Below are positions 43,942 through 61,999 of a DNA stretch of 64,000 nt, piece by piece. Within the stretch, counting starts at the first letter, position 1, and the number at the start of each line of letters is the position of its first letter. The stretch is taken from positions 115,876 to 179,875 of the forward strand of contig CAYFXV010000001.1 of the NCBI GenBank assembly GCA_964347265.1, read 5' to 3'. The stretch is from an uncultured archaeon (GTDB lineage: Archaea; Aenigmatarchaeota; Aenigmatarchaeia; Aenigmatarchaeales; Aenigmatarchaeaceae). The translations under genes and the position numbers were made by a program. Under the pieces are notes generated by a model. That model made no database searches. It was not told where the DNA came from and was given only the letters and a program-made list of their open reading frames with translations.

Positions 43942-46331
43942 AGAAATTTATATTTTTATCAGTGATTTTATTTTTAATTACAATTCCTTTAGCTTCAGCT
44001 ATGCCTACAATTGAAAATTTTTCTGTCCAACCTCCATCTCTTTGGTTAGGAGAGGGTGCATTTATTTCTCTAAATTGTCTTGATGAAAATTATACAATAG
44101 AACAGGTCTATGCTGATATAATAGGCCCTTCAATTACTCTTCCTACAATGTACTTCACAAAATCTGGTGAAAATTACAGCTTATCTGTTGATAAAGAGTA
44201 CCTTGACAGAACTGGAAATTTTGATGTAACAATATCTTGTGAAAATAATAATAGTGAAATAAGTTATACTTCTACAAATTTCACGATCTCAGAACTTACA
44301 GGTTATATCAATAAAATTAGTCCTAGTCCTGCTTACATTGGAGATACATTAGAAATAGATTTTATAGTCAAAAAAGATGATACAAAATTATCTTCTGGTG
44401 TTGTCTTCAATGTTACATTAAACGATGATCTAAAGAATTTGAAAGTTCTTCCAGCTTATGATATTAACAAAGGTTGGATACTAAAAATAAATTCTCCTAC
44501 CAAATCCAATCTTTATGATTTAGAAGTAACAGCATTTTATGACAGAACAAGTGTAACAGATTATGATACGATTGATGTTAGAAACAAAATTGAATTTGAA
44601 ATCGTTTCTATAGATAGAAATTGGATTAAAACTAATGACAATATAACTGTTAGAGTAAAAGCCTTAGAAAGGGGTAGTGTCATTGAGTTAAATAAAAATA
44701 ATGTTGACATTAACATAGGTTCTACTACTGCTGAAATAACTAGCGTATCTAGAGAAGGTGATTTATTTAATGTAAAAATTATTGCACCAAGTCTTTCTTC
44801 TGGAAGATATAATTTAGAAGCTTATCTCAACTATGAAAGTTCTTCTTATTCAGATAGTGAACCAATAGATTATATTGTAACAGTTGAGGGAGTTTTTGTT
44901 GATGAAAAAAACAAAGCAATGAATGTTAAGATAATTTTTATTCAGGACGATATTACAAAATTAAGCATAACAACAGATGCTTACGGTCACTATTCTGGTT
45001 CGTTGCCTCCTGATATTTATGATGTTAAAATTATTTTCCCGAGATCTGAAGTTATTTTGTATGATGTCTCAGTTAGTAGTTTTGATGATCCTATAAAACA
45101 TTTTTACTCAACTGGTTTTAGTGTTTCTGGAATAAGAAATGCTGGTTTATATAGTTTTGAAATAGATTTATCTTACTTTGATGCTGATATAGAAATGAAA
45201 TATGAGGAAAGGAATGTTATAAGCGAAAATAATTTGAGGGTTTTCAGATGTTCAAGTTGGAGTTCTGGAAGAGGAACATGTAATGGTGAGTGGGAAGAAG
45301 TAGTTGGTGAAATTGATGTTATAAGAAACAAAGTAAAAATAACTTCTTCCACACTTTCAGCTTTTGTTATAGGTGAAATAAAGGCTTTAAGTGCAGATTT
45401 CAGCTTAGATAAAGAAAGATATTATCTTAACGATGATATCACAATAACAGGAATATTAAAAGATGAAGACAGAGGTAGTGTTAGTAATGCTACCATAGAT
45501 GTAAATATTAAAAATACAGGTATAAATTCTAAAACTACTACAGATGAAAATGGTGTATTTTCTGTAGAAATTCCAGCACCTGAAATTGAAGGAGAATATG
45601 GTTTAGTTTTAAAGGCAAAAAAGCATCCTTATAAAGAATTTAGTGCTGAAAAGTATTTTGAAATTATTAAAAGCAGATCAGTCTACATAGATTTTCCAGA
45701 CACGATAAAAATAGCTAGAGGGAATAATCTTACTCAAGAATTTAGTTTAACAAATAATGGACAAGCAGATCTTTCTGATTTAAAAATTTCTTTAGAGGGC
45801 ATACCTGAAAATTATTATAGTATCACTTCAGATAGTACAGATTTGAAAATTGAAGAAAAGAAAACTTTTTATATAGATTTCTTTATTCCTGTTTATGCTG
45901 ATACTGGAATCTCCAGTACTACCTTAAAAATTGAAGATAGTAATGTATCCGAAGAAAAAATTTTCGGATTAAATATATTTGAAAAAATCGAAGAAAATGA
46001 AACTACAGCTGCTCCCACAGGTCTTGTTACAGGTTTTGTTTTCCCAGAAATTAGTTATTTAGAGGTACTCTATATTGTATTGTTTGCAGTAGCTTGTTTT
46101 TCTGTAACAATTATTTTAAAGAAAAGAAAAGTCAGAAAAGGAAGCAGAGGTAATATTAAAAATTTTTTATTTGATATTAAAAACTTTATTGAAAAAGAAG
46201 AACCTCAAACTCAAAAAATTAAAGTTCAGAAAAAATCTAAAAAAAATAATTATGATAAGATAATTGCAACAGAATTTCCTAATTTTCTTAAATTATCTGA
46301 AAATTTGAAAAAAATAAAAGGTGGTGAATAA
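43938..46331 (+). CDS. Type-I membrane-anchored surface protein (797 aa) with CarboxypepD_reg-like beta-sandwich segments
   Basis: Signal MKKFIFLSVILFLITIPLASA. Motifs TDAYGHYSGSLPPDIYDVKIIF and TDENGVFSVEIPAPEIEGEYGLVL. C-terminal TM YIVLFAVACFSVTIIL followed by KKRKVRK. Lysine-rich cytoplasmic tail. Confidence 0.7.
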   Translation: MKKFIFLSVILFLITIPLASAMPTIENFSVQPPSLWLGEGAFISLNCLDENYTIEQVYADIIGPSITLPTMYFTKSGENYSLSVDKEYLDRTGNFDVTISCENNNSEISYTSTNFTISELTGYINKISPSPAYIGDTLEIDFIVKKDDTKLSSGVVFNVTLNDDLKNLKVLPAYDINKGWILKINSPTKSNLYDLEVTAFYDRTSVTDYDTIDVRNKIEFEIVSIDRNWIKTNDNITVRVKALERGSVIELNKNNVDINIGSTTAEITSVSREGDLFNVKIIAPSLSSGRYNLEAYLNYESSSYSDSEPIDYIVTVEGVFVDEKNKAMNVKIIFIQDDITKLSITTDAYGHYSGSLPPDIYDVKIIFPRSEVILYDVSVSSFDDPIKHFYSTGFSVSGIRNAGLYSFEIDLSYFDADIEMKYEERNVISENNLRVFRCSSWSSGRGTCNGEWEEVVGEIDVIRNKVKITSSTLSAFVIGEIKALSADFSLDKERYYLNDDITITGILKDEDRGSVSNATIDVNIKNTGINSKTTTDENGVFSVEIPAPEIEGEYGLVLKAKKHPYKEFSAEKYFEIIKSRSVYIDFPDTIKIARGNNLTQEFSLTNNGQADLSDLKISLEGIPENYYSITSDSTDLKIEEKKTFYIDFFIPVYADTGISSTTLKIEDSNVSEEKIFGLNIFEKIEENETTAAPTGLVTGFVFPEISYLEVLYIVLFAVACFSVTIILKKRKVRKGSRGNIKNFLFDIKNFIEKEEPQTQKIKVQKKSKKNNYDKIIATEFPNFLKLSENLKKIKGGE

Positions 46332-47107
46332 TGGTAAGGATAATTGCTGTATGTTCTGGTAAAGGTGGTGTTGGAAAAACTATTGTGGCTTCCAATTTAG
46401 GAGTAGCCCTTCAGAAATTTTATAAAAAAGCTGCAGTTATTGACTTTAATTTTACAACATCACATTTAAGTCTATATTTTGGTATACATTCTCATCCAAT
46501 AACTTTAAACCACGTCTTAAGAAATGAAGCAAGATTAGAAGATGCTATTTATAATCATCATTCAGGTTTAAAAATTGTTCCTGGATCTTTAAAACTCAGA
46601 GATATTATTGATGTTGATGTTAATAATTTAAGAAATACATTAAAACAAGCATTTTCTAGCTTTGACGTTGTTTTTCTTGATTCTGCACCAGGATTAGGTA
46701 AAGAAGCTTTAATAGCTTTGCAAGCAAGTGATGAGGTTTTATACATTGCAAACCCTCACCTACCTTCTTTAATTGATATAACAAAGTGTAATCAAGTAAT
46801 TAATAAACTGGAAAACAAACCAATTCCAATAGGTATAATTGTTAACAGGGTTAAAAACAAAGGTTATGAAATTAAAAACGATGAAATAAGACAATTTACA
46901 GAACTACCAATTATTGGAGTTATTCCTGAAGATGAAAATATATTATCAGGTTTCAATAGAAGAGATTTGGTAATGCTTTCTAAAAAAAGATCTTCATCTA
47001 AAAAAGAGTTTTTTAAAATTGCTGCAAAACTTGTTGGAATGAAATATGAATACAGTTTTTGGGATAGAATCAAGAGTATTTTCGGAAAAGAAAAAGAATT
47101 TTTTTAA
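46331..47107 (+). CDS. minD: MinD/ParA-family (SIMIBI class) ATPase, paralog 1
   Basis: Deviant Walker A CSGKGGVGKT at residues 8–17. Motifs DFNFTTSHLSLYFG and VVFLDSAPGLG. Its ATG shares a base with the upstream stop (TAATGG). Confidence 0.8.
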   Translation: MVRIIAVCSGKGGVGKTIVASNLGVALQKFYKKAAVIDFNFTTSHLSLYFGIHSHPITLNHVLRNEARLEDAIYNHHSGLKIVPGSLKLRDIIDVDVNNLRNTLKQAFSSFDVVFLDSAPGLGKEALIALQASDEVLYIANPHLPSLIDITKCNQVINKLENKPIPIGIIVNRVKNKGYEIKNDEIRQFTELPIIGVIPEDENILSGFNRRDLVMLSKKRSSSKKEFFKIAAKLVGMKYEYSFWDRIKSIFGKEKEFF

Positions 47108-47131: not shown

Positions 47132-50100
47132 GTGGAATATATGGCTAAATCATTAACAAAAATGAGTTTAACTTTATTTTCTTTATTCTTACTAATAATA
47201 GGTTTATATATAACACAGATAGTTTTAGCTGACCCAGATGAAACAACAATCACATTAACAACTGCTGCTTCAAATACTTATAATGGTGGTGATGCAAACG
47301 GTGGATTGACAGGAGATATTAATTGTGAATATACGATTGATACAATAACTGCACCAACAGGAACTATAGATCAAATAAATTGTTCAGTTTATATAAACTC
47401 TTTTAATAACAAAAAAACTCCAAACAATACTATAAAATGTTTGGAATGTTCAGATGTTTCTTGCACTGGTTATAATCAGATTGGAACAACACAAACCCCT
47501 GCTGAAACGGGATGGATAAATTTTCCAAATGAAGTTCCTTCATATTGTGATACTTCTGGGGAGACATGTTATTTTGCTGTTGAAGTATGTGAATTAGGTC
47601 ATGCACTTGACGATATTGCATTATCTGATGCTTGGGCTGGTTTTAATTTTACCCCACCAGATGACAGCACTCCACCCAATTGGTTTGACAATACTACTTC
47701 TGTTGTTAATGGGTCGCAGTACTCGCCTGGAAAAAATTATCAATTTAATGTAACTTGGAATGATAGTCAAACTGATGTTAATACTGTTTTAATAGAACAT
47801 AATTTTACTGGAGGTGCTGTTCCTCACAATGATAGTGTGAGTAATGAAAGTGATATTTATTATTTTTACCTTAGTGATTTGCCAGCTGGAACTTACGCAT
47901 GGAGAGAACATGCAAATAACACGGATGATTATTGGAATGTTACTAATGATGGAGTTTATTGGGAATATGTTGTAGATCAGAATCAAAGTAATTCTGTTGA
48001 TATGTATATCAATAATGGAACTGTATACAAGAATGAGAATGTTACAATAGATTACAGTACACAGACAAATACTAATGGAACCGCTGTTTACAGTAATAGT
48101 GGAACTGTGAATTTGTATAGAAATGAAAGTCCTGTTAGTAATCCTGACATTGTCACTCTAGGCGCTAGTACATATGTATATAAGGCAAATATAACGGGGA
48201 ACAATAATTACACTGATAATTCAACTGGTGCGACCTATTATTTGTTTGTTAAAAAGGCTGACCCAACAGCAAATTTGAAATTAGCTTTAAATGGAACTGA
48301 GAGTGACTGGACCTATACATATCCTGAGACTGTTAATGCAACTGGTTGGTGTGATTTAACTGATAATCAAGATCTGAGTTTCACTTTGTATAGGAATTAT
48401 GTTTCTACTGGACAGACAGGAGATCCATCAACAGAAGAGATATTACTTGGTAATGCGACTTATGTTTATGAATATAATACAACAGGTGGAAGTAACTATA
48501 GTTCAGGAACTATTACTAGAACAGCTTATGTTAACAAAGGAACAGTTTCACCTAGTTTGTCAATAAATACAACCTGGACAGAGATGTATCCAACAGCAAC
48601 GAGTGTTAGCTGTTCAGTCACTTCTGTGAATAATGAGGTTAATTGTAATTTGTATAGGAATGATACTGGTTCTGTTGTTAGTCCGGATGAAGTATTACTT
48701 GGAGTAGGAGGTTATAATTATTCAACTAACACATCTGAGACAGCTAACTATTCAGCAAATACTACGGGAACATTTAATGTTTTAGGAATTAATCTAGGTA
48801 CTCCGAATGTTAAGACATTTATAGATACTTTACCTTTAAATAAAACTATTAATTATTCTACCAGCGTAACCATAGAAGGAAATTCTACTACCACAACAAC
48901 TCCACCAACTTTTGATTTATTTGTATTTAATGTAACACCATCTTCACCAGCTGTTAGTTTGTCGAACACTTCGAATAATCCTGCGACCTTAATATTAACA
49001 CTGGGAAATGGAACTTATCAAATAATTTACAATACCTCTGGGAATGCTAACTGGTCTTCTACTCAGAATAACACCTTATATTTAATGGTTAATAAAGGTA
49101 GTGCTAATTTGGTTTTAAGCTCTAATGTGACATGGAGTACGATTTACCCGAATGCTAGCAATGTTACTGGTTCTGGATGTCCAACAAATGGCGCATCAGA
49201 TTTTACATGTAATTTATATAGAAATACTTCAGTTACGAATCCTGTCGGTTCTGGTGAACCCATGACAAATGAAACTATTTTACTTGGAGCAGGTAGTCAT
49301 GAATATGTATGGAATATGAGTATTAGTAATCCTGCTAACTGGACTTTTAATACAACTAATGATATTTTAGTTATATCTCCAAATAGTTCTACTCAAAATT
49401 ATATGAATCTAACTTTAGGAACTGGAGCAACTGGAACAGAAGATAATAAAACATATAGTTATCCTACAACTACTAATGCAACTGGATGGTTTGACGCTAA
49501 TGCATTCGTAGGTTCTGCTCCTACATTTAATTTATACAGAAATGATACACCAATCGTAGATGGTAATCCTGTTAGCAATGTTATAGAACTTGGGGCTGAT
49601 TATTATCAATATGTTTATAACACATCTGGTAATACTAACTATTCATCGGCATCAAAAACATTTTTCTTGAACATAACTAAGGCTGACCCAACAGCAAATT
49701 TGAAATTAGCTTTAAATGGAACTGAGAGTGACTGGACCTATACATATCCTGAGACTGTTAATGCAACTGGTTGGTGTGATTTAACTGATAATCAAGATCT
49801 GAGTTTCACTTTGTATAGGAATTATGTTTCTACTGGACAGACAGGAGATCCATCAACAGAAGAGATATTACTTGGTAATGCGACTTATGTTTATGAATAT
49901 AATACAACAGGTGGAAGTAACTATAGTTCAGGAACTATTACTAGAACAGCTTATGTTAACAAAGGAACAGTTTCACCTAGTTTGTCAATAAATACAACCT
50001 GGACAGAGATGTATCCAACAGCAACGAGTGTTAGCTGTTCAGTCACTTCTGTGAATAATGAGGTTAATTGTAATTTGTATAGGAATGATACTGGTTCTGT

Positions 50101-52405
50101 TGTTAGTCCGGATGAAGTATTATTAGGTGCTGGATATTATAACTATACTACAAATACATCACAAACTGCTAATTATTCTGCTAATACTACGGGAGAGGGT
50201 CAAATATTAACCATACAAGCAAATACATCATCTAGTATTGATTTGTTCTTGAATAATTCACAAGCTAATTTTGATATGGATGCTCATACCGCCTTGAATA
50301 CAACAGCAGTTCTTGTTATTCCTCCTTCTAGTAATATAGAAATATGGACAAATTATTCTGATGGAGGATGGAATCTTTGGGATTCATGTTCAGATTGTCC
50401 TTCACTGGAGAATGTAACTGTCTTAACACAATCTGGTATTTGGAATTTCACTGCTAATCTTACAAATGCTAATTATACTTCTGCTTATGAGAGTTGGTAT
50501 GCTAATATGACAGGAGATACAACTTCACCACAATGGAGTCAACAAGGATCCAACGCCACATTAATTGGAGTTGGAGAACCAATCAAACTCTATGCAAATT
50601 GGTCTGATAATATTGATTTAGACTATGCTTGGCTTTCTACAAATGAAAGTGGTGAATGGAAAAATAAATCTGGGGTTTATAATTCGCCTATAGATATAAA
50701 CCTAAGTGTAGGTGAAACATGGTCAAACTTCACTTGGCAAAATACTTCTACTCCAGCAGGAACAGCTGTTAGTTGGAGAATCTATGCTAATGATTCTAAT
50801 AGCAATGAGAATGTTACAAACATTCAAACTTTCACCTTAAATGTTACTGAACTTTGGAATTTTTCAACTAATGGTTCAATATTTTCATCTGCAGCAATAG
50901 CAGATATAAATGATGATACATTCATAGATGTGATAATAGGTTCTGATGATTTCAATGTTTATGCACTGAATGGTACTAATGGTAGTAAATTATGGAATTA
51001 TTCAACTGAAGGTGCAGTTGCATCATCTCCTTCTTTGGCTAATGTTACTGGCGGTGATGATTTAGAAGTTATAGTTGGGTCCTTTGATGATAGTGTTTAT
51101 GTATTAAATGGAACTAATGGGAGTAAGATATGGAACGTTTCGCTTGGAGGGGATGTTTGGTCATCTGCGGCAATTGAAGACATAGATAATGATAATTATT
51201 TAGATATAGTTATAGGCTCTGATAATTGGACTGTCTATGCTTTTAATGGAACAGGAGATTTAATCTGGAGTTTTTCAGCTGAAGATTCTATATGGTCTTC
51301 TCCAGTAATCGCAAATATAACTCAAGATGAGTTTATAGAAGTAATTTTTACATCTTATGATTATAATGTCTATGCCCTTAATGGGAGCAATGGAAGTAAA
51401 TTATGGAACTATTCAGTTTTGGATATGATTGAATCGTCTCCAGCAGTTGGTGATATTAATAATGATAATTTATTAGAAGTTGTTTTTGGGTCTTATGATA
51501 ACAGAACATATGCTATTAATGGAACCAATGGAGAAGAGCTTTGGAATTTCTCAACTAACGAATGGATAATATCTTCTCCTGTAATAGCTAATATCACAGG
51601 AGGTAATTCATTAAAAATTGTTGTTGGGTCTGATGATGGTACTGTTTATGCTCTGAATGGAGATGGTACATCTTTTTGGAATTTTACTGTACCTACTGGA
51701 GGAAGAATTGAATCTTCACCAGCTATTGCTGATATGAATGATGATGGAATTAATGATGTTATTGTAGCTTCTACTGATAATAGAGTATATGCTTTAAATG
51801 GCTCTACTGGCACACAAATATGGAGCTATAATACACGTGGCTATCTCTTTTCATCTCCATCTGTTGAAGACATAAATGGTGATGGACGTTTAGACATTGT
51901 AATTGGTTCATTTAATGAAAAGATTTATTCTCTTGATCCTCCAAGTGGTTGGAATATGTTTGGTGGTAATCAAAAACGCACAAGAGTTGTGGATAGGTCT
52001 CCACCAATTAACTTAAAATATGGAGTATATCTAATCAATGGTTCTGCAATAATTTATTCCTATTGGAGAGATTTGTATAGTAACTTGGCTTTTGGAATAA
52101 TAGAAGAAAACTCAAATGGAATGTTTACTGATCACAATATTAATATTTTTGGAACAACTAGTTGGATTAATTATACTATTGACAATTGTTTAAGTTCTCC
52201 TGAAAAAAACATGCGTAATTGTATAAAACAATGTACAGAAACGTGGAAAACATGTGAAGAAACAAAAGATGAATGTCATGAAGAGATGAAACACTGTAAA
52301 AACAATTGTAGAAATTCTGAAAAAATAGTCGAATATAAAATTCATGCTTTTGACACATTCAACAATGAAGGTATCGTAGAAGATGTGTTTATATGTGGTG
52401 GATGA
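47132..52405 (+). CDS. Large (1757 aa) N-terminally anchored surface protein: sequon-rich repeats, an 8-bladed PQQ-like/FG-GAP-like beta-propeller region (~50850–51990) and a Cys-rich C-terminal tail
   Basis: N-terminus MAKSLTKMSLTLFSLFLLIIGLYITQIVLA. Eight repeats of SSPAIADI.DD...DVIVGS.D..VYALNGTNGSKLWN. C-terminus CLSSPEKNMRNCIKQCTETWKTCEETKDECHEEMKHCKNNC. Confidence 0.8.
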   Translation: MEYMAKSLTKMSLTLFSLFLLIIGLYITQIVLADPDETTITLTTAASNTYNGGDANGGLTGDINCEYTIDTITAPTGTIDQINCSVYINSFNNKKTPNNTIKCLECSDVSCTGYNQIGTTQTPAETGWINFPNEVPSYCDTSGETCYFAVEVCELGHALDDIALSDAWAGFNFTPPDDSTPPNWFDNTTSVVNGSQYSPGKNYQFNVTWNDSQTDVNTVLIEHNFTGGAVPHNDSVSNESDIYYFYLSDLPAGTYAWREHANNTDDYWNVTNDGVYWEYVVDQNQSNSVDMYINNGTVYKNENVTIDYSTQTNTNGTAVYSNSGTVNLYRNESPVSNPDIVTLGASTYVYKANITGNNNYTDNSTGATYYLFVKKADPTANLKLALNGTESDWTYTYPETVNATGWCDLTDNQDLSFTLYRNYVSTGQTGDPSTEEILLGNATYVYEYNTTGGSNYSSGTITRTAYVNKGTVSPSLSINTTWTEMYPTATSVSCSVTSVNNEVNCNLYRNDTGSVVSPDEVLLGVGGYNYSTNTSETANYSANTTGTFNVLGINLGTPNVKTFIDTLPLNKTINYSTSVTIEGNSTTTTTPPTFDLFVFNVTPSSPAVSLSNTSNNPATLILTLGNGTYQIIYNTSGNANWSSTQNNTLYLMVNKGSANLVLSSNVTWSTIYPNASNVTGSGCPTNGASDFTCNLYRNTSVTNPVGSGEPMTNETILLGAGSHEYVWNMSISNPANWTFNTTNDILVISPNSSTQNYMNLTLGTGATGTEDNKTYSYPTTTNATGWFDANAFVGSAPTFNLYRNDTPIVDGNPVSNVIELGADYYQYVYNTSGNTNYSSASKTFFLNITKADPTANLKLALNGTESDWTYTYPETVNATGWCDLTDNQDLSFTLYRNYVSTGQTGDPSTEEILLGNATYVYEYNTTGGSNYSSGTITRTAYVNKGTVSPSLSINTTWTEMYPTATSVSCSVTSVNNEVNCNLYRNDTGSVVSPDEVLLGAGYYNYTTNTSQTANYSANTTGEGQILTIQANTSSSIDLFLNNSQANFDMDAHTALNTTAVLVIPPSSNIEIWTNYSDGGWNLWDSCSDCPSLENVTVLTQSGIWNFTANLTNANYTSAYESWYANMTGDTTSPQWSQQGSNATLIGVGEPIKLYANWSDNIDLDYAWLSTNESGEWKNKSGVYNSPIDINLSVGETWSNFTWQNTSTPAGTAVSWRIYANDSNSNENVTNIQTFTLNVTELWNFSTNGSIFSSAAIADINDDTFIDVIIGSDDFNVYALNGTNGSKLWNYSTEGAVASSPSLANVTGGDDLEVIVGSFDDSVYVLNGTNGSKIWNVSLGGDVWSSAAIEDIDNDNYLDIVIGSDNWTVYAFNGTGDLIWSFSAEDSIWSSPVIANITQDEFIEVIFTSYDYNVYALNGSNGSKLWNYSVLDMIESSPAVGDINNDNLLEVVFGSYDNRTYAINGTNGEELWNFSTNEWIISSPVIANITGGNSLKIVVGSDDGTVYALNGDGTSFWNFTVPTGGRIESSPAIADMNDDGINDVIVASTDNRVYALNGSTGTQIWSYNTRGYLFSSPSVEDINGDGRLDIVIGSFNEKIYSLDPPSGWNMFGGNQKRTRVVDRSPPINLKYGVYLINGSAIIYSYWRDLYSNLAFGIIEENSNGMFTDHNINIFGTTSWINYTIDNCLSSPEKNMRNCIKQCTETWKTCEETKDECHEEMKHCKNNCRNSEKIVEYKIHAFDTFNNEGIVEDVFICGG
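48254..48699 (+). repeat. Exact ~446-bp intragenic repeat, copy 1 (copy 2 at 49679–50124, offset 1425 bp)
   Basis: ADPTANLKLALNGTESDWTYTYPETVNATGWCDLTDNQDLSFTLYRNY...NCNLYRNDTGSVVSPDEVLLG is identical at both sites. ggctgaccc appears at 48256 and 49681. Confidence 0.8.
49679..50124 (+). repeat. Exact ~446-bp intragenic repeat, copy 2
   Basis: See copy 1. Confidence 0.8.
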
Positions 52406-52937
52406 GATGAATAAAAATAAATTAATGTTATTGTTCGTATTGTCAGTATGCTTTATTGTTTTAATGTTTTTTGTAATGCCCGCATCATCTAATGTAATAC
52501 ATTTAACACCTATTGAAGCAAAAGATTCTGATGGCAATCCATCATCTGATATAATCCAAAGAATAATTTTAGAAAATGATTTTGAAGATGTTATTTTAAA
52601 GGTAAGACCGTTTGGCTACATTACAGTAAAAGAATGGGATAATGGAATGTCTGACATATCAAAGATAGAAAAAGCTATCATAAATGTTAAGTGGAAAACT
52701 GATGTGAATAAAGGAGCTGGTAATATCTACATAGGATATTCAACAGATGAAGGTAAATCTTTTGTGGAAAAAGGGCCTTTCAATGAAAGTGAGATTATAC
52801 AAAATAGCGTGATTGAACTCCCAAAACCTTTTACATATGATTTAAAGAAAGTTCAGGTTAGATGGAGAGGAGAAGATCTTGATTACAGATTAGCTGCTAG
52901 GGGATATGTTAATTTCACAATGGATGTTTATGTTTGA
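52383..52937 (+). CDS. Small secreted/anchored protein with one copy of the GKGAGNIY(I/V)GY...VR.RGEDLD domain shared with the next gene
   Basis: 184 aa. Hydrophobic N-terminus LMLLFVLSVCFIVLMFFVMPASS. KGAGNIYIGYSTDEG...VRWRGEDLDYRLAARGYVNF parallels the duplicated domain of the downstream gene. Confidence 0.55.
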   Translation: MCLYVVDEMNKNKLMLLFVLSVCFIVLMFFVMPASSNVIHLTPIEAKDSDGNPSSDIIQRIILENDFEDVILKVRPFGYITVKEWDNGMSDISKIEKAIINVKWKTDVNKGAGNIYIGYSTDEGKSFVEKGPFNESEIIQNSVIELPKPFTYDLKKVQVRWRGEDLDYRLAARGYVNFTMDVYV

Positions 52938-52947
52938 GGATGAAAAT

Positions 52948-55056
52948 ATGATGACTGTTAATAAAATAAAAAATAATTTTGTGTATTCATTCTTATTGAT
53001 TTTATTAATTTGGTTTTTATTTTTTGTTATTTTTGTAATTGCAACACAGCCTAGCATAAACAGAGTACCGACTGCATGTGTAGATTCAGATGGTGATTGT
53101 GATGTTGAGAACATTAATCTAAGTGATAATATCTATGAGAGTGTTAACTTGAAGACATCTCCCTTTGGTTGGATTAATGCAACTGATTGGGATCAAGATG
53201 TGCCTGCTGGAAATACAATAGATAATGCGACATTGTATGTTGAATGGTACACTGATACTGGTAAAGGTGCTGGTAATATCTATGTAGGATATTATAACAG
53301 TACTGATTGGGTTAATTGTACAAGTCCTTTGAGTGAAAGTGGAGGTGAAGTAGATACAACATGTGATGTTTCTAGTCTGTCTCTTTCACAGTTGAATAAT
53401 ATAAAAGTTAGATTTAGGGGTGAGGATTTAGATCAACGTAACCCTGCTTATGCTTATGTTGATTATATTTACATTGAGGTTAATTATTCTGCTCCACCTT
53501 TGTGGGCAAATCAAACAACAAATGACACAAATAATGTTATACTTTCCAAAAAAGCCATAAATTTATCAGCACAAGGATATGATGATGTAGGTTTAGACTA
53601 TGCTTGGCTTTCTACAAATGAAAGTGGTGAATGGAAAAATTATACTGATGGAACTTATGGATCACCAATGTATTTGAATGGTGTATCGGAAACTTGGACT
53701 TGGAGTAATTTCACTTGGAAGAATGATTCATTTTCTTATGGACTGGTTGGATGGAAAATTTATTACAACGATACATGGGGAAAAGAAAATGTTACAGATA
53801 ATTCTACATTTTTTGTTCAATTAGGAAGAATACCGACTGGATGTGTAGATTCAGATGGTGATTGTGATGTTGAGAACATTAATCTAAGTGATAATATCTA
53901 TGAGAGTGTTAACTTGAAGACATCTCCCTTTGGTTGGATTAATGCAACTGATTGGGATCAAGATGTGCCTGCTGGAAATACAATAGATAATGCGACATTG
54001 TATGTTGAATGGTACACTGATACTGGTAAAGGTGCTGGTAATATCTATGTAGGATATTATAACAGTACTGATTGGGTTAATTGTACAAGTCCTTTGAGTG
54101 AAAGTGGAGGTGAAGTAGATACAACATGTGATGTTTCTAGTCTGTCTCTTTCACAGTTGAATAATATAAAAGTTAGATTTAGGGGTGAGGATTTAGATCA
54201 ACGTAACCCTGCTTATGCTTATGTTGATTATATTTACATTGAGGTTAATTATTCTATGGCTGGCATGGGTTATTTAGAAGTTAATCTTTCATTGCCACCT
54301 GATCCATACAATGTTATTCAAAATAATACTTTTACTATTAATGCAACTGTTTATTGTAGAAGTGGGAATTGTCAAAATGTTAATGGAACTGCTAGATATA
54401 ATCTCTCATCTGCAACGCCAGACACTCCGATGAATGTTACACCAGGAGAAGAACCATTTTACGTGAATGAAACTCCTGCTCTAGCAATGAAGTCTTGCCC
54501 AACAAACCCATTAAATGTTGATGATTTTTGCAATTTAACTTGGACCATTAATGCAACAGGTAATATTAACACTTATTGGGAAATCGATGTCTTATTTAAT
54601 TCATCTGATGGTGGTATTACAGACAATCATACAGATGATACAACAATATCAATACTTGATTGCACTGTGGATATTACTGCACAATGGTCTTCTATAAAAT
54701 TTGGTTTATTGTATCCGAGTACAGGACCACATGCAGCTCCTGACAATTCAAATGATAAATATAACATAACTGTTAATCCGGGAAGTTGTAATCTAGATCT
54801 TTACATAAATGGAACAGATTTAACAAACATAACTTACAATTCTCAAATCGGTGTTGATAATGTAACATGGAGTAACACAAGTGAAGTAGCTGGTGAATTT
54901 AATCTATCATCCACAGTTGATGTTATTAAGTTAGATGTTCCTCAAAATACAAATGTTACAACTTGGTATTGGATAAATGTTCCAGCTGTTTATGCCGGCT
55001 ACTATAATGGAACAATTTATATATATGGTGTTGAAAATGGTGAAAATCCTCCTTAA
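52948..55056 (+). CDS. Secreted/anchored protein (~703 aa) with two near-identical ~141-aa domains and a sequon-rich C-terminal region
   Basis: Likely start is the ATG at 52948 (MMTVNKIKNNFVYSFLLILLIWFLFFVIFVIA), just after the upstream stop at 52937; the ORF track extends to 52906. PT(A/G)CVDSDGDCDVENINLSD...VRFRGEDLDQRNPAYAYVDYIYIEVNYS occurs twice. Confidence 0.7.
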   Translation: MMTVNKIKNNFVYSFLLILLIWFLFFVIFVIATQPSINRVPTACVDSDGDCDVENINLSDNIYESVNLKTSPFGWINATDWDQDVPAGNTIDNATLYVEWYTDTGKGAGNIYVGYYNSTDWVNCTSPLSESGGEVDTTCDVSSLSLSQLNNIKVRFRGEDLDQRNPAYAYVDYIYIEVNYSAPPLWANQTTNDTNNVILSKKAINLSAQGYDDVGLDYAWLSTNESGEWKNYTDGTYGSPMYLNGVSETWTWSNFTWKNDSFSYGLVGWKIYYNDTWGKENVTDNSTFFVQLGRIPTGCVDSDGDCDVENINLSDNIYESVNLKTSPFGWINATDWDQDVPAGNTIDNATLYVEWYTDTGKGAGNIYVGYYNSTDWVNCTSPLSESGGEVDTTCDVSSLSLSQLNNIKVRFRGEDLDQRNPAYAYVDYIYIEVNYSMAGMGYLEVNLSLPPDPYNVIQNNTFTINATVYCRSGNCQNVNGTARYNLSSATPDTPMNVTPGEEPFYVNETPALAMKSCPTNPLNVDDFCNLTWTINATGNINTYWEIDVLFNSSDGGITDNHTDDTTISILDCTVDITAQWSSIKFGLLYPSTGPHAAPDNSNDKYNITVNPGSCNLDLYINGTDLTNITYNSQIGVDNVTWSNTSEVAGEFNLSSTVDVIKLDVPQNTNVTTWYWINVPAVYAGYYNGTIYIYGVENGENPP
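53068..54255 (+). repeat. Near-perfect 423-bp intragenic duplication (53068–53490 = 53833–54255, 765-bp offset; a single gca/gga difference noted)
   Basis: Direct base comparison. Confidence 0.8.
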
Positions 55057-57288: not shown

Positions 57289-58053
57289 ATGGTAAGAATA
57301 ATAGGAATTGTATCAGGAAAGGGCGGTGTTGGAAAAACTACTGTAGGTCTAAACCTTGGAGCAGCTTTAGCTCATCACTTTAAAAAGAATGTTACTATTG
57401 TTGACTGTAATGTTACAACATCACATTTAGGACTTTATTTAGGAATGTATTACTGTCCTATTACATTAAATAAGGTTTTAAGAGGAGAATATACTGTTGA
57501 AGAAGCTGTTCAACAACACCACACAGGATTAAAAGTAATACCAGCCTCTCTATCTTTAACAGATTTAGAAGGAATAGATATAACAGAAATAAGAAACAGT
57601 TTAAAATCAATCTTTGATAAAAATGATATCATATTATTAGATGCAAGTCCTGGTTTAGGAAGGGAAGCAGTAGCAACATTAAGAGCAAGCGATGAGGTAT
57701 TGTACATTACAAATCCTTATATTCCTTTTGCGATGGATATTGTAAGAAATCAAGAAATTGTTAATGAGATTGGAGTAAAACCTATAGGAATTGCTCTTAA
57801 CATGGTTCATGACAAAAAATATGAAATGAATAAAAAAGAAATAGAAGAATTAACAAGATTACCTGTTATAGCTAAAATACCTTTTGACAGAAATATTCAT
57901 AAGAGTCTTGCTTTAAAAACTCCAGTCGTAACTTATAAGCCTTATACTGCTGCAAGTAAAGAAATCATAAATCTTGCTTCTAATTTAATTGGAGAAACTT
58001 ATAATTTTGAGGGTGCACTACAAAGATTTTTAAGAAAATTAAGATTAAGATAA
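57289..58053 (+). CDS. minD: MinD/ParA-family ATPase, paralog 2
   Basis: MVRIIGIVSGKGGVGKTTVGLNLG has the deviant Walker A. DCNVTTSHLGLYLG and ILLDASPGLG. Colinear with paralog 1 at roughly 35–40% identity by eye. Confidence 0.8.
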   Translation: MVRIIGIVSGKGGVGKTTVGLNLGAALAHHFKKNVTIVDCNVTTSHLGLYLGMYYCPITLNKVLRGEYTVEEAVQQHHTGLKVIPASLSLTDLEGIDITEIRNSLKSIFDKNDIILLDASPGLGREAVATLRASDEVLYITNPYIPFAMDIVRNQEIVNEIGVKPIGIALNMVHDKKYEMNKKEIEELTRLPVIAKIPFDRNIHKSLALKTPVVTYKPYTAASKEIINLASNLIGETYNFEGALQRFLRKLRLR

Positions 58054-58084: not shown

Positions 58085-58573
58085 ATGTATAAAAAAGTTT
58101 TTTGGTTCTTGCTTGTATGGACAGTGTTCTCTTTAATATTACAAATGTTTGGTTATGAAATTTTAGATTCCATTATAATTGTTCTCATAATTGATTTAAT
58201 AGCACTAGGAGTAATTGTAGAAATTGGTAGGAAAAAACCATTAAAAGAAATTAATGAAAAAATTGCATCAAAAATTGAAAACATAGAAAATGTTTGCCAA
58301 AGCATACTTAAAAGTTCTGATGAAAATCCAATAATGGAAAAAATAGAAGGAAGAATAAATAAACAAAAAGAAGATGTAAATTATCTTTTAGATAAAATGT
58401 CTAGAAAAGCTCTAGAATTAGAAGAGAAAATAAATAAGTTCGGATTAAATTTAGCTGAACATGTAGAAGATTTTACTGATAGGCTAGAAAAACTTGAAAA
58501 TCCTGAAGAAACAGAAGAAACAGAAAGTTTTCCTATTGGAGAAACCGTATACATAGAAGAAGAAAAAACTTAA
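58085..58573 (+). CDS. N-terminally membrane-anchored coiled-coil hypothetical protein
   Basis: 162 aa. Two hydrophobic segments, then an E/K-rich helical region. Confidence 0.45.
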   Translation: MYKKVFWFLLVWTVFSLILQMFGYEILDSIIIVLIIDLIALGVIVEIGRKKPLKEINEKIASKIENIENVCQSILKSSDENPIMEKIEGRINKQKEDVNYLLDKMSRKALELEEKINKFGLNLAEHVEDFTDRLEKLENPEETEETESFPIGETVYIEEEKT

Positions 58574-58598
58574 ATATATATTAAAATAATTAATCTAC

Positions 58599-58612
58599 AC
58601 TGCTTAAGCAGT
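58599..58612. promoter_or_regulatory. Perfect 14-bp palindrome ACTGCTTAAGCAGT, 29 nt upstream of the L1 ATG
   Basis: Read directly. Possible hairpin (terminator or attenuator for the upstream gene, or an L1 translational feedback element) or a protein-binding site. Confidence 0.25.
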
Positions 58613-58640
58613 AGCATTGTGCGTTGACGAGTTGTTGAAA

Positions 58641-59279
58641 ATGGTTAATGAAAAAATAATTGAAGTTTTGAAAAAGACTAGAGACACAAAGAAAAGAAAC
58701 TTTAAACAAAGTTTTGATCTAGCCATTAATTTAAAAAATATAGATTTAAGAAAACCTGAAAATAGAATTAAAACTGAAATAAAATTACCAAATGGTTTGG
58801 GAAAAGAAACTAAAATAGGAGTTATTGTTGATTCTCTTTTACCTCAAACAAATAACATAGAAAATATTGTTATTATTAAAAAAGATCAATTATCAGGATT
58901 CGGAAAAAATAAAAAAGAAGCAAAAAAAATTGTAAGGCAATGCAGATATTTTTTGGCTGAAGCTCCTTTAATGCCTTTAGTTGGAAAAAACTTAGGTCCT
59001 GTCTTAGCTCCTAGGAATCTTATGCCATTACCAATACCTCCAAATGCTAATTTAGGGGCAATGGTGAATGAAAAAAGAAATGTTTTAAAAATCCAGTTAA
59101 AAGAATCTCCAACAATTCATGTAGGTATTGGAACAGAAGATATGGATGATCAAAAAATTGCTGAAAATGTTGATGTTGTTATTAAAAATGTTATATCAAA
59201 ACTTCCAAAAGGTAGAGAACAGGTTAAAAATTATGTTATTAAATTAACAATGGGTAAACCTGTTAAGTTTAAGTTGTGA
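58641..59279 (+). CDS. rpl1: Ribosomal protein L1 (uL1)
   Basis: MVNEKIIEVLKKTRDTKKRNFKQSFDLAINLKNIDLRKPENRIK... fits the archaeal L1 pattern. ATG at 58641; the ORF track's TTG at 58617 is less likely. Confidence 0.8.
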   Translation: MVNEKIIEVLKKTRDTKKRNFKQSFDLAINLKNIDLRKPENRIKTEIKLPNGLGKETKIGVIVDSLLPQTNNIENIVIIKKDQLSGFGKNKKEAKKIVRQCRYFLAEAPLMPLVGKNLGPVLAPRNLMPLPIPPNANLGAMVNEKRNVLKIQLKESPTIHVGIGTEDMDDQKIAENVDVVIKNVISKLPKGREQVKNYVIKLTMGKPVKFKL

Positions 59280-59283
59280 TTAT

Positions 59284-59742
59284 ATGACTGTAAATTGGGA
59301 TTCATTTGAAAAGGGAGTTTTCCTAGTTAATTGTCTAGCTATAATTTATAAAGATGGAAAAATTCTAATTGGAAGAATAGGAAAAGATCCTCATATAAAA
59401 GAATTAACTTGGCGTTTCCCTGGAGGAAGACCTAGATATGATAAACCTTTGGAAAAATCATTAAAAGAAGAAGTTAAGAAAAAAACTAATATTGATGTTA
59501 AAGTAAAGAAACTAATCTTTGCAAGAATTTATCCAGAAAAAAAAGAATTTTTATCTTTATATTATCTTTGTGAGTTTTATTTGTGTGAACCTATTGGTGG
59601 AATTGAAAAACCAGGAGAAAAATTTAAAGAATTAAAATGGATAAAACCAACAGAAGTTACTAAATATTTTACAACATCAATAGACCCTTTCATTTTAGAG
59701 TTTTTGAAAAAATTAGAGAGTGGAGAATATGAAAAAAGGTAG
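59284..59742 (+). CDS. Nudix-fold protein with a degenerate Nudix box (catalytic Glu positions replaced by Lys), inserted between the L1 and P0 genes
   Basis: WRFPGGRPRYDKPLEKSLKEEVKKKTNIDV aligns with the Nudix consensus WEFPGGK.E.GE...AL.RELKEELGI but reads EEVKKK where REuxEE is expected. Overlaps the P0 start by 14 nt. Confidence 0.5.
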   Translation: MTVNWDSFEKGVFLVNCLAIIYKDGKILIGRIGKDPHIKELTWRFPGGRPRYDKPLEKSLKEEVKKKTNIDVKVKKLIFARIYPEKKEFLSLYYLCEFYLCEPIGGIEKPGEKFKELKWIKPTEVTKYFTTSIDPFILEFLKKLESGEYEKR

Positions 59743-60571
59743 GGAAGAGGTAAAACCTAAGAAAATAAAAGCTGTAGAAGATTTAGCTAATTTAATTAAT
59801 AGTTATAGTGTTGTAGGTATCTTAGATCTTTATAAAACTCCTGCTTCAGTTCTACAAACAACAAAAACAATTCTTAGAGGAAGAGCTCTTATAAAGGTTG
59901 CTAAAAAGAACATCATGGTACGTGCTTTAGAAAATGCTGGTAAAGAGAGTTTAAAAGAATTCACTGAAGGCTATCCTGCATTAATACTAACAAAAGAAGA
60001 TCCTTTCAAGATATATAATTTCTTGCAAAGAAAAAAAGTTTCTGCACCTGCAAAGCCAGGCGATATTCCAGAAGAAGATATAGAAATTAAAGCTGGTCCT
60101 ACAGATCTTATGCCTGGTCCTGCTATTTCAACTCTAACAAAAGTTAAAATTCCTGCAAAAGTTGAAGCTGGGAAAATTGCTGTTATTAGAGATAAGGTTG
60201 TTGCTAAAGCTGGTGAAAAAATTTCTTTGGATTTGGCATCTGCTTTACAATTATTAAAATTAAAACCAATGGAAGTTGGATTGAATGTTGTTGTTTTAGA
60301 AGAAAAAGGAATACTCTATAAAGGAGAACAATTGTTTATAGACGAGGAAAAAGTATTTAATGATTTTCGAACTGCAATACAAAATGCATTTAATTTGTCA
60401 ATAAATTCTGCATATCCAACAAAAGTAACTATTAGTTTAATAATTACTAAAGCATTTTTGAATGCAAAACAATTGGGATTGGAAGCTGGAATAATTGAAC
60501 CTGGAATTATTGAAGATTTAATAGCAAAAGCGAAAGTGCAGGCTGAGGCTTTGAAAGCAAAGGTTGGTTAA
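59729..60571 (+). CDS. rplP0: Ribosomal stalk protein P0 (uL10), short form lacking the C-terminal acidic tail
   Basis: KIKAVEDLANLINSYSVVGILDLYKTPASVLQTTKTILRGRALIKVAKKNIMVRALENAG fits the archaeal P0 N-domain. Ends ...AKAKVQAEALKAKVG without the EE...GLFG tail. ATG at 59729. Confidence 0.75.
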   Translation: MKKGREEVKPKKIKAVEDLANLINSYSVVGILDLYKTPASVLQTTKTILRGRALIKVAKKNIMVRALENAGKESLKEFTEGYPALILTKEDPFKIYNFLQRKKVSAPAKPGDIPEEDIEIKAGPTDLMPGPAISTLTKVKIPAKVEAGKIAVIRDKVVAKAGEKISLDLASALQLLKLKPMEVGLNVVVLEEKGILYKGEQLFIDEEKVFNDFRTAIQNAFNLSINSAYPTKVTISLIITKAFLNAKQLGLEAGIIEPGIIEDLIAKAKVQAEALKAKVG

Positions 60572-60572
60572 C

Positions 60573-61007
60573 ATGATTGAAATAGTCGAAACTAAAGATT
60601 ATGAAAAAATTTGCAAATTAGCAAAAGCTGGTGGAGCAGATATGCATGATTTAGAGAAACTTGATTTAGTATGGATGGCTCTAGTTGACAAAGAAGAGGT
60701 TGGTGTATCTGGAATAAGGAATTTTGAAAAATATTATGTTGTTGATATGTTGGCTGTAAAGCCAGAATTTCATAAAAAAGGCATAGAAAAGAAATTATTA
60801 GAAGCAATCATAGAACATGCCAAAAAAAACAAAATTAAAACTCTTTATACTATGTTTAAGAAAAGTCATAGAGAGTTTGGTTTAGAGGTTGGTTTTAAAC
60901 TTATTAATTTTGATGAACTGCCAAAAGATTATGATGGTGCATGTTTAACATGTGATCAAAGAGGTGAAACATGTTTTCCTGAACCTATGGAATTAAATTT
61001 GAGGTGA
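60573..61007 (+). CDS. GNAT-family N-acetyltransferase located between the P0 and P1 genes
   Basis: LAVKPEFHKKGIEKKLLEAIIEHAKKN matches GNAT motif A (h.V.P..+G.GIG..LL). 145 aa, typical GNAT size. ATG at 60573, 2 nt after the P0 stop. Confidence 0.6.
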   Translation: MIEIVETKDYEKICKLAKAGGADMHDLEKLDLVWMALVDKEEVGVSGIRNFEKYYVVDMLAVKPEFHKKGIEKKLLEAIIEHAKKNKIKTLYTMFKKSHREFGLEVGFKLINFDELPKDYDGACLTCDQRGETCFPEPMELNLR

Positions 61008-61011
61008 TAAA

Positions 61012-61677
61012 ATGCCAATATTGTTTAACTTCAAAGTGTGTGACAATGCGTCTGCGTGTAATGGAATAGGTGCTTGTCCAGTAAAAGCAATAACTTGGAA
61101 TGATGAACAAAAAACTTTAGTTGTTGATAATTCAAAATGTACTAGTTGTGGACTTTGTGCAAAAGCTTGCCCTGTTCCAGAAGCTATTTTAGTTGTAAAA
61201 ACAGAGGAAGATTTTGAAAAAATAAAAAATCAAGTAGAAGATGATCCAAGAACTAGAGCAGAACTATTAAAAGATAGATATGGTGTTGCACCGACAGATC
61301 TTAATCTAGTTTTAACTATGGCAAATTTCAATAAAGAAGTGTTAGAAACTGATAGAATTGTTATTGTTGATTTTTGGGATGAACCACATGTATCTTGCAG
61401 ATTATTTTCTATACCGTTTGAAAACATATTACCAAAAAAAACATTTATTTCAGAAATAATGAAAATGGGAAATCTCGAAGATTTGAAGTTCAGATTTAGA
61501 AAAGTTGATGTAGAAAAAAATCCTGAAATTGCTACAAGATATAATGTAAAAGAAATTCCTTCACTATTAATATTTTGGAAAGGAAAATCAATAGGAAGAA
61601 TTGAAGGTAAATTTAAAGTCGAAAAGGAGAAAGAACTCAGAAAGAAAATAGCAGAAGTACTAAAACAAATAAGGTGA
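61012..61677 (+). CDS. Fusion of an N-terminal ferredoxin-like Cys-cluster module and a C-terminal thioredoxin-fold domain with the CxxC active site lost
   Basis: [14 protein letters not shown] (C-x5-C-x5-CP) and [12 protein letters not shown] (C-x2-C-x2-C-x3-CP) give 7 Cys. The C-terminus [17 protein letters not shown]...[54 protein letters not shown] parallels thioredoxin hhVDFWA.WCGPCK...NP..A..Y.I..IPTLLLFKNGE... but has DEPH in place of CGPC. Confidence 0.6.
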
Positions 61678-61681
61678 TGTT

Positions 61682-61987
61682 ATGGAATACATATATTCAG
61701 CACTTTTGCTTCACTCTGCTAAACAAGAAGTGAATGCTGAAAACGTAACAAAGGTGTTACAAGCAGCTGGTATAACACCAGATGAAACACGAGTAAAGGC
61801 AATGGTAGCATCTTTAGATGGAGTTAATATTGAAGAAGCAATAAGCAAAGCAGCAATGCCAGTGGCAGCAGCTGCACCAGCAGCAGAAGCAAAAGGAAAA
61901 GAGGAAAATAAAGAAAAGGAAAAAGAAGAAGATGTTGAAAAAAGAGCAGAACAGGCTGTAGAAGGTTTGGCTGGTTTGTTTGGTTAA
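61682..61987 (+). CDS. rpl12: Ribosomal stalk protein P1 (archaeal L12 / aP1)
   Basis: [35 protein letters not shown]...[39 protein letters not shown] is the canonical archaeal P1 N-terminus with an Ala-rich hinge and acidic GLFG tail. Confidence 0.85.
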
Positions 61988-61999
61988 TATTTTTAAGAA

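Follow-up and report, generated by a model that had tools for sequence, protein, structure and literature searches.

Few gene arrangements in prokaryotes are normally as rigid as ribosomal-protein operons, which serve as anchors in phylogeny and synteny, and in Methanococcus, Halobacterium and Sulfolobus the stalk cluster runs L11 / L1-L10(P0)-L12(P1). What, then, are three non-ribosomal genes doing inside such an operon in an archaeon of the Aenigmarchaeota (DPANN)? The question is raised by a stretch of 64,000 nucleotides (nt), referred to below as the window, in which a preliminary description had noticed a stalk operon broken up by a Nudix-like gene, a GNAT gene and a ferredoxin/thioredoxin-like fusion. 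Pfam and NCBIfam matches bore this out: between positions 58641 and 61987, six open reading frames (ORFs) on the same strand encode L1, the Nudix-like protein, P0, the GNAT acetyltransferase, the fusion of a ferredoxin with a thioredoxin fold (61012-61677), to which we gave the working name FdTrx, and P1. The L1, P0 and P1 genes keep the order and strand of the archaeal stalk operon rpl1-rpl10-rpl12, but they are not contiguous: 453 nt lie between L1 and P0, and about 1.1 kb between P0 and P1 (1110 nt from stop to start codon; 1114 nt by tblastn coordinates).

We favour an explanation in which the locus is a single stalk-operon unit whose L1/P0 and P0/P1 junctions would act as cassette-like insertion slots for passenger genes that are not themselves stalk components, and we consider it probable, though by no means assured. 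According to this proposal, all six genes would be transcribed from one promoter with a structured leader 5' of L1. Small accessory genes would enter as translationally coupled cistrons, each served by a Shine-Dalgarno (SD)-like motif at the 3' end of the gene before it, and this cargo would be quickly gained, exchanged and lost among close relatives. The passengers would thereby obtain strong constitutive expression from the ribosomal promoter, regulators being probably scarce in this genome. Those in the window would have three separate origins, as a degenerate Nudix-fold protein, a fast-evolving GNAT with a cysteine motif, and FdTrx.

Variable slots in the stalk operon

Stalk loci were gathered by inspecting the genomic context of homologs of FdTrx, Nudix and GNAT and by a metagenome scan with a P0 alignment; reading them by tblastn coordinates gave 23 unique loci with both P0 and P1 visible. 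The P0/P1 junction was empty in ten and occupied in 13, with eight kinds of cargo recorded. FdTrx was present at this junction in ten of the 23 loci, and three partial loci additionally showed P0 followed by FdTrx, or by GNAT and then FdTrx. It was the sole cargo six times, in four loci as subtype A (~70% identity to the window protein) and in two as subtype B (~40%), while elsewhere its partner was a UbiE-type S-adenosylmethionine (SAM) methyltransferase (L001), a phosphoribosyltransferase (L099), a LAGLIDADG/helix-turn-helix (HTH) gene (L104) or, in the window, GNAT. Junctions occupied without FdTrx held a flavin mononucleotide (FMN) reductase with a LAGLIDADG/HTH-like gene (L092), a phosphoribosyltransferase with an FMN reductase (L098), or a PNPOx-like gene (L107). 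A Nudix gene was found in the L1/P0 slot in only three loci (the window, L088 and L091), and GNAT was found in its slot in two lineages only. Comparison of gene order thus showed the insertions to be variable rather than universal in the lineage, and the interruption, although correctly described for the window, is neither one event nor a fixed feature, as Nudix, GNAT and FdTrx are each differently and patchily distributed.

The four most distant relatives (P0 at most 57% identical) have uninterrupted operons, and the placement of L11 also varies. L11 adjoins L1 only in one distant relative (L115, L11-L1-P0-P1), whereas the nearer relatives L110, L096 and L124 have genes wedged between L11 and L1: L110 reads L11-TM162-L1-P0-P1, and in L124 a NusG-L11 pair lies ~4 kb 5' of L1 with six genes in between. 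Because the distant loci are uninterrupted and L11 moves about, we read the canonical cluster as ancestral and as progressively invaded within the clade. The absence of L11 upstream of L1, reported earlier for the window, agrees with our scan, which found no L11 there or elsewhere among the window ORFs it covered (it did not extend to the giant ORFs, a number of short ones or the final 2 kb). This unlinked state is, however, a trait of the whole clade and not a peculiarity of this genome.

Cargo differs even where the flanking ribosomal proteins are nearly the same. Two loci that are 96% identical over L1 and P0 carry an FMN reductase with a LAGLIDADG/HTH gene (L092) and an FdTrx of type B (L094), respectively, and in a third (L093), at 90-91% identity over L1 and P0, the slot is empty. 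L090, the closest relative of the window at 92% identity, has no Nudix gene; its absence is a clean 445-nt indel between the point 4 nt after the L1 stop codon and the P0 ATG, and both indel junctions read (A/T)ATATGA. Irrespective of cargo, the ~15 nt 5' of the P1 ATG read (A/T)GGAGGTGTAAAAA. This element consists of the SD and the stop codon of the preceding gene, and in empty loci it derives from the 3' end of P0. Its preservation under any cargo suggests that passengers are installed as translationally coupled cistrons and that a copy of the initiation region flanks them on either side.

The GNAT gene shows a different kind of change. In L122 and L123 a GNAT sits in the same slot and is 40% identical to that of the window by BLASTP (43% by phmmer, same protein), between a P0 and an FdTrx that are 88% and 90% identical to ours. 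Nucleotide identity to L122 is ~83-97% in the flanks and 37-73%, mostly below 0.67, in the GNAT core, and it tapers across ~30 nt at either GNAT border. Such bounded divergence would result either from very rapid evolution or from replacement of the allele by recombination.

Genes that may drive the turnover occur in the relatives. LAGLIDADG-type genes lie inside the slot in L092 (6335-7453) and L104 (1629-2786) and just beside it in L124 (7960-9120, minus strand), and a related HTH family is found directly 5' of L1 in about eight loci (L001, 1918-2730, and its homologs); all of these are candidate homing-endonuclease-like drivers of cargo exchange. We also considered a foreign origin of the passengers in the window and ruled it out, since their GC content at third codon positions (GC3, 0.13-0.18) is native-like, resembling that of neighbouring genes.

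Transcription and translation of the six genes

The operon opens with rpl1, encoding ribosomal protein L1/uL1 (58641-59279, plus strand as for all six genes; NF003244, 236 bits against a cutoff of 203; PF00687, 1e-44). The L1/P0 slot contains the passenger with the degenerate Nudix box (59284-59742, 152 amino acids (aa); PF00293, 26.7 bits against a cutoff of 21.1), and rpl10, for P0/uL10, follows at 59729-60571 (PF00466, Ribosomal_L10, and PF17777, RL10P_insert). Beyond it come the hypervariable GNAT passenger (60573-61007, 144 aa; three Pfam GNAT models), FdTrx (221 aa; Pfam Fer4 and Thioredoxin), which joins an N-terminal ferredoxin-like domain with seven cysteines to a monothiol thioredoxin-fold domain, and rpl12, for the stalk protein P1 (61682-61987; TIGR03685, 125 bits against a cutoff of 100). 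Spacing is tight throughout, with +4 nt between L1 and Nudix, an overlap of 14 nt (-14) between Nudix and P0, +1 nt between P0 and GNAT, and +4 nt both between GNAT and FdTrx and between FdTrx and P1. These values agree with the 14-nt overlap and with the gaps of at most 5 nt given in the preliminary description. L090 bears out the P0 start at 59729, as the same ATGAAAAAAGGTAGG there stands straight after the L1 stop codon.

A TATA-like box, TTAAATATATAT, lies at 58570-58581 (plus strand) just 5' of L1 and is the putative promoter of the stalk operon. The clade consensus, TTTAAATAT, occurs ~25 nt 5' of a leader hairpin in 20 related loci, and a scan of 56.9-62.1 kb of the window (5.2 kb) found this single copy and none inside the operon. 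The box is followed by a 5' leader (58599-58623, plus strand), defined by the alignment of the 20 related loci and consisting of a 5-bp hairpin at 58599-58612 and the invariant AGCAUUGUGCG at 58613-58623. Across the 20 loci (alignment A4), AGCAUNGUGCG is invariant 3' of the hairpin, 95% of cells are paired, and compensatory changes occur at three of the five pairs. This covariation exceeded 500 of 500 shuffles and every slide control, RNAalifold also returned the stem, and the leader motif occurs once in the window against none expected. It matched no Rfam family.

In Methanococcus, L1 represses the translation of its own operon (PMC2175363), and by analogy the conserved leader may be an L1 autoregulatory site. 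If the leader is the L1 target, the passengers would come under L1 control as well. The archaeal element described for M. vannielii and M. jannaschii is an mRNA mimic of the L1 site on 23S rRNA (PMC2175363). It shares with our leader the character of a conserved, covarying RNA element at the 5' end, and the window element differs in lying 5' of the start codon and in having no Rfam family.

SD-like motifs stand immediately 5' of all cistrons but L1. The clear cases are GGAG before P0, GAGGTGAT before FdTrx and AGGTGAT before P1, the last of them 4 nt upstream and within the 3' end of FdTrx, and the motifs before Nudix and GNAT are weaker. None of the gene junctions has an oligo-T tract of six or more Ts. 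A run of five Ts directly after the P1 stop codon (61990-61994, plus strand) is a candidate archaeal terminator, and a HAD-like gene that converges on the operon ends at 62000. A relative at 81% identity (L005) has a gene for formylmethanofuran:tetrahydromethanopterin formyltransferase (FTR; 6983-7933, minus strand) just 3' of P1 and beside the HAD-like gene, which is unexpected for a DPANN archaeon with reduced metabolism. The proposal that the inserted genes are co-transcribed with those of the stalk is plausible in view of the spacing, the SD-like motifs, the single promoter box, the leader hairpin and the lack of oligo-T at the junctions, and the six genes are probably one transcription unit.

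Passenger families and alternative explanations

FdTrx belongs to a small family of ~29 full-length members. Invariant in it are C10, C16 and C22, C43, C46, C49 and C53, C129, and the cis-proline P183, and these eight cysteines with the cis-proline indicate that the protein is strongly constrained. The N-terminal domain, with seven of the cysteines, has an unusual first cluster motif, C-x5-C-x5-C-P, next to a canonical second one, C-x2-C-x2-C-x3-C-P, and matches polyferredoxin modules such as those of FwdF and MvhB. The C-terminal domain has the thioredoxin fold (Foldseek probability 1.0 to many thioredoxins) with its cis-proline, but the window protein reads HVSC in place of CxxC, of which only the second cysteine (C129) is conserved. 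By its cysteine count, FdTrx would be either a 7Fe ferredoxin joined to a monothiol thioredoxin or a protein with two 4Fe-4S clusters in which C129 is the eighth ligand. It thus differs from ordinary thioredoxins and 2x[4Fe-4S]/7Fe ferredoxins in its single invariant thioredoxin-domain cysteine, its first motif and the fusion itself; fold and sequence searches of the PDB matched the domains separately and no solved structure with the fusion.

The GNAT subfamily is rare, as an exhaustive search of 1.84e9 representatives gave 17 matches at E<1e-10, and the nearest representative is 43% identical (phmmer). Its members share an invariant C-x2-C-x5-7-C, usually followed by Phe-Pro, which in the window takes the form of a C-terminal C-x2-C-x6-C-F-P. 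The AlphaFold2 (AF2) model has a pLDDT of 95.9 and a generic GNAT fold, with RimI, Naa50 and GCN5 among its structural neighbours, and the fold search gave no clue to a substrate. The best NCBIfam matches, ArsN2-like and NAGS-like, all lie far under their cutoffs. We considered an arsenic-resistance reading, with an ArsN2-like GNAT and an ArsM-like methyltransferase, and rejected it on scores far under the family cutoffs. Small unannotated ORFs 5' of FdTrx in L002 and L004, tested as hidden GNATs, were not GNATs.

The Nudix-like protein belongs to a large family (55-85% identity) found in DPANN archaea and Patescibacteria. As in MutT/RppH-type hydrolases, of which the closest solved entry is 3EES (family profile match, 7e-10), the fold is that of a Nudix protein and the box has its GG...E portion, but the box GX5EX7REUXEEXGU is incomplete: REUxEE reads xEVKKK, so that the two metal-binding Glu give way to Lys conserved throughout the family, with K67 invariant. 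It is probably not a standard pyrophosphohydrolase. To call the two proteins a Nudix hydrolase and a thioredoxin would accordingly claim more than their sequences contain. Between DPANN archaea and Patescibacteria (candidate phyla radiation, CPR), members of this KKK-box family are ~55-65% identical (alignment A5), an unusually high value for cross-domain homologs that suggests horizontal transfer between these episymbiont groups. The window protein also matched a PADLOC candidate model, PDC-S07, at 1e-11; GNAT and FdTrx had no PADLOC match. Family members occur elsewhere without linkage to the stalk (L089).

Some of the passengers may work together. In L009 a GNAT with the cysteine motif, FdTrx and a methyltransferase (34% identical to that of L001) are clustered outside any ribosomal operon, and this clustering suggests that GNAT, FdTrx and the UbiE-type methyltransferase probably form a small redox or modification module. 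The same contig, from a metagenome-assembled genome (MAG) labelled Paceibacterota, carries a HigB(Gp49)-like toxin and an HTH antitoxin (542-1165) directly 5' of the cluster of GNAT, cupin, FdTrx and methyltransferase. Redox-active proteins (FdTrx, FMN reductases, PNPOx-like) and nucleotide-related ones (Nudix-like, phosphoribosyltransferases) make up much of the slot cargo, which fits a house-keeping or stress-protection role that would profit from constitutive expression.

Could the arrangement instead be an artefact, or the packing of the genes a matter of compaction alone? The window comes from a MAG, and related assemblies break in the P0/FdTrx region, so a chimera of assembly or binning has to be considered. 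We give it next to no credence, because three short contigs of independent origin, two from Logan assemblies and one from NCBI GCA_012975005.1, carry P0-GNAT-FdTrx-P1 at 99.9% nucleotide identity, L088 and L091 independently have Nudix immediately 5' of P0, and the passengers are native-like in composition; the gene arrangement is not an assembly artefact. The breaks themselves fall right at P0/GNAT/FdTrx (L090 stops after P0, and the FdTrx fragments P0048 and P0049 are 116-119 aa long), which fits strain-level heterogeneity at the slot in natural populations. That each passenger is expressed independently from its own promoter is also improbable in our judgement. DPANN genomes are densely packed and archaeal promoters can sit within the upstream coding sequence, so that tight spacing could in principle mean no more than genome compaction. 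Yet the clade promoter box is missing within the operon, spacings of -14 to +4 nt go with SD-like motifs in the preceding gene (clearest for P0, FdTrx and P1), and the P1 initiation region is kept under any cargo.

Other explanations would give a passenger a task in translation. GNAT could be a dedicated ribosomal-protein acetyltransferase of P1 or P0, by analogy with bacterial RimL, which acts on L7/L12; its position directly between P0 and P1, its confident fold, with protein N-acetyltransferases among the neighbours, and weak rimI matches speak for this. We nevertheless find it very improbable: GNAT reaches only 23 bits on rimI, where the cutoff is 86.4, and NCBIfam gave no RimL match, the gene was found in the slot in two lineages only, a subfamily member in L009 stands away from any ribosomal gene, and hypervariability (40% identity between flanks at 88-90%) is unlike an enzyme that tracks a conserved substrate. 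FdTrx, perhaps together with GNAT, might likewise be tied to translation, as a redox sensor or in Fe-S maintenance for the stalk, the GTPase-associated centre or ABCE1, its position then reflecting co-regulation. Its recurrence in the P0/P1 slot as two divergent subtypes argues for such a tie, as does its presence near ABCE1: the FdTrx gene of L007 is flanked by S7 and S6e and has ABCE1 at a distance of 1.2 kb, and in L008 (Nanohalarchaeota) a gene that scores 495 bits as ABCE1/RLI (cutoff 469) stands 2 kb 5' of FdTrx on the same strand. The archaeal P1 tail binds, recruits and activates the Fe-S protein ABCE1 (PMC6125642), which is thus a client of the stalk. We still think this link rather unlikely, as the slot is empty or filled with unrelated cargo in 13 of the 23 loci, FdTrx also occurs in unrelated contexts (L002, L003, L004, L009 and L010), and neither fold nor sequence searches revealed likeness to a known ribosome-binding factor. 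Translation genes presumably make up a large share of small genomes, moreover, which makes proximity to them weak evidence. The stronger version, in which FdTrx is a previously unrecognised translation-associated Fe-S/thioredoxin-fold factor of DPANN archaea, acting with the P-stalk and ABCE1 in redox sensing or Fe-S protection, strikes us as a degree more doubtful; if true, it would explain why the gene recurs between P0 and P1, beside ABCE1 and among ribosomal genes. The ABCE1 gene of L007 itself stands in an operon-like arrangement with a canonical MutT-like Nudix gene (7868-10023, minus strand), the two overlapping by 4 nt at the ABCE1 start; the pair lies 1.2 kb from FdTrx and adjoins S6e and S7.

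Some of these observations count against the cassette explanation that we prefer. The repeated use of one slot by both FdTrx subtypes (~70% and ~40% identity) could reflect selection for linkage to P0 and P1 and not neutral hitch-hiking, and two unrelated lineages have FdTrx close to ABCE1 or to other ribosomal genes. The survey, for its part, draws on a few sediment metagenomes that are related to one another, and its loci are phylogenetically non-independent. Co-transcription and the benefit in expression are what we infer from sequence, and so is the mechanism of turnover, since the window itself contains no LAGLIDADG/homing-endonuclease gene.

Known systems, stalk proteins and surrounding genes

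Relative to the canonical archaeal stalk cluster, the window retains the order and strand of L1, P0 and P1, a putative promoter of its own, a structured leader and the P1 tail, and it differs by three inserted cistrons, an unlinked L11, a tail-less P0 and slot contents that vary among relatives. Passenger genes in ribosomal operons are already known. The bacterial spc operon carries the non-ribosomal secY, adk and map, and the two cases have in common that unrelated genes are embedded, and presumably co-expressed, in a highly expressed ribosomal operon. However, the spc passengers are ancient and fixed, whereas here the cargo changes from genome to genome although the flanking ribosomal proteins are 90-96% identical; what is unusual is the speed of cargo turnover. 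The intronless homing of T-even phages, in which free-standing homing endonucleases insert between conserved genes, resembles the situation in the relatives, where LAGLIDADG-type genes lie between or next to conserved essential genes, with polymorphism of presence and absence and with clean boundaries. It differs in that the window is endonuclease-free and the cargo is mostly metabolic or redox-related.

Our findings suggest that, in a DPANN lineage, unrelated cistrons can be rapidly gained, swapped and lost at the junctions of an essential operon. The locus would offer a natural system in which to study how small, promoter-poor genomes secure the expression of accessory genes, how translational coupling is re-established each time a gene is inserted and whether homing-endonuclease-like genes drive the turnover. 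It also draws attention to three protein families, the FdTrx fusion, the GNAT subfamily with the cysteine motif and the KKK-box Nudix family of DPANN and CPR, and to a candidate regulatory RNA leader of the archaeal L1 operon; we regard the FdTrx family and the leader as the best leads. For annotation, a location inside a ribosomal operon should be taken as a weak sign of ribosomal function in these lineages.

Among the stalk proteins, P1 ends in the canonical C-terminal GLAGLFG tail, whereas P0 is a short form. P0 passes both Pfam domain cutoffs, but its NCBIfam equivalog score of 289 falls below the cutoff of 331 because the C-terminal tail is missing; it covers positions 5-281 of the 336 in the NCBIfam L10 profile and aligns with residues 8-273 of Pyrococcus P0. 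Canonical archaeal and eukaryotic P0 has a flexible hinge and, at its C-terminus, a factor-binding tail, and both are missing here. A P0 at least 90% identical to that of the window is labelled Candidatus Aenigmarchaeota archaeon. Relatives such as L001 and L006 have a still shorter P0, of 254-257 aa, without the last ~26 residues (IIEPGIIEDL...KVG), and those with the shortest P0 may bind one P1 dimer fewer.

Upstream of L1 lie a MinD gene at 57289-58053 (TIGR01969, 212 bits against a cutoff of 201.75), as the preliminary description had it, and a gene for a 162-aa protein with a hydrophobic-looking N-terminus and no significant family match. A second MinD/ParA-type ATPase gene is found at 46331-47107 (plus strand). 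No tRNA, 23S rRNA or Rfam match was detected in the window. Between 30 and 47 kb most ORFs have no Pfam match at all.

A 716-aa ORF at 52906-55056 (plus strand) contains an exact internal duplication of ~145 aa (...CVDSDGDCDVENINLSD to ...YIEVNYS, twice) and is rich in N-x-S/T sequons; its product is probably a surface glycoprotein. Almost half of the window (83-30505, plus strand) is taken up by one ORF of 10,140 aa, and further giant ORFs encode 1,964 aa (33569-39463) and 1,757 aa (47132-52405). Giant proteins are typical of DPANN and CPR genomes, and the largest of these ORFs, together with a GC content of ~31%, fits a DPANN archaeon.

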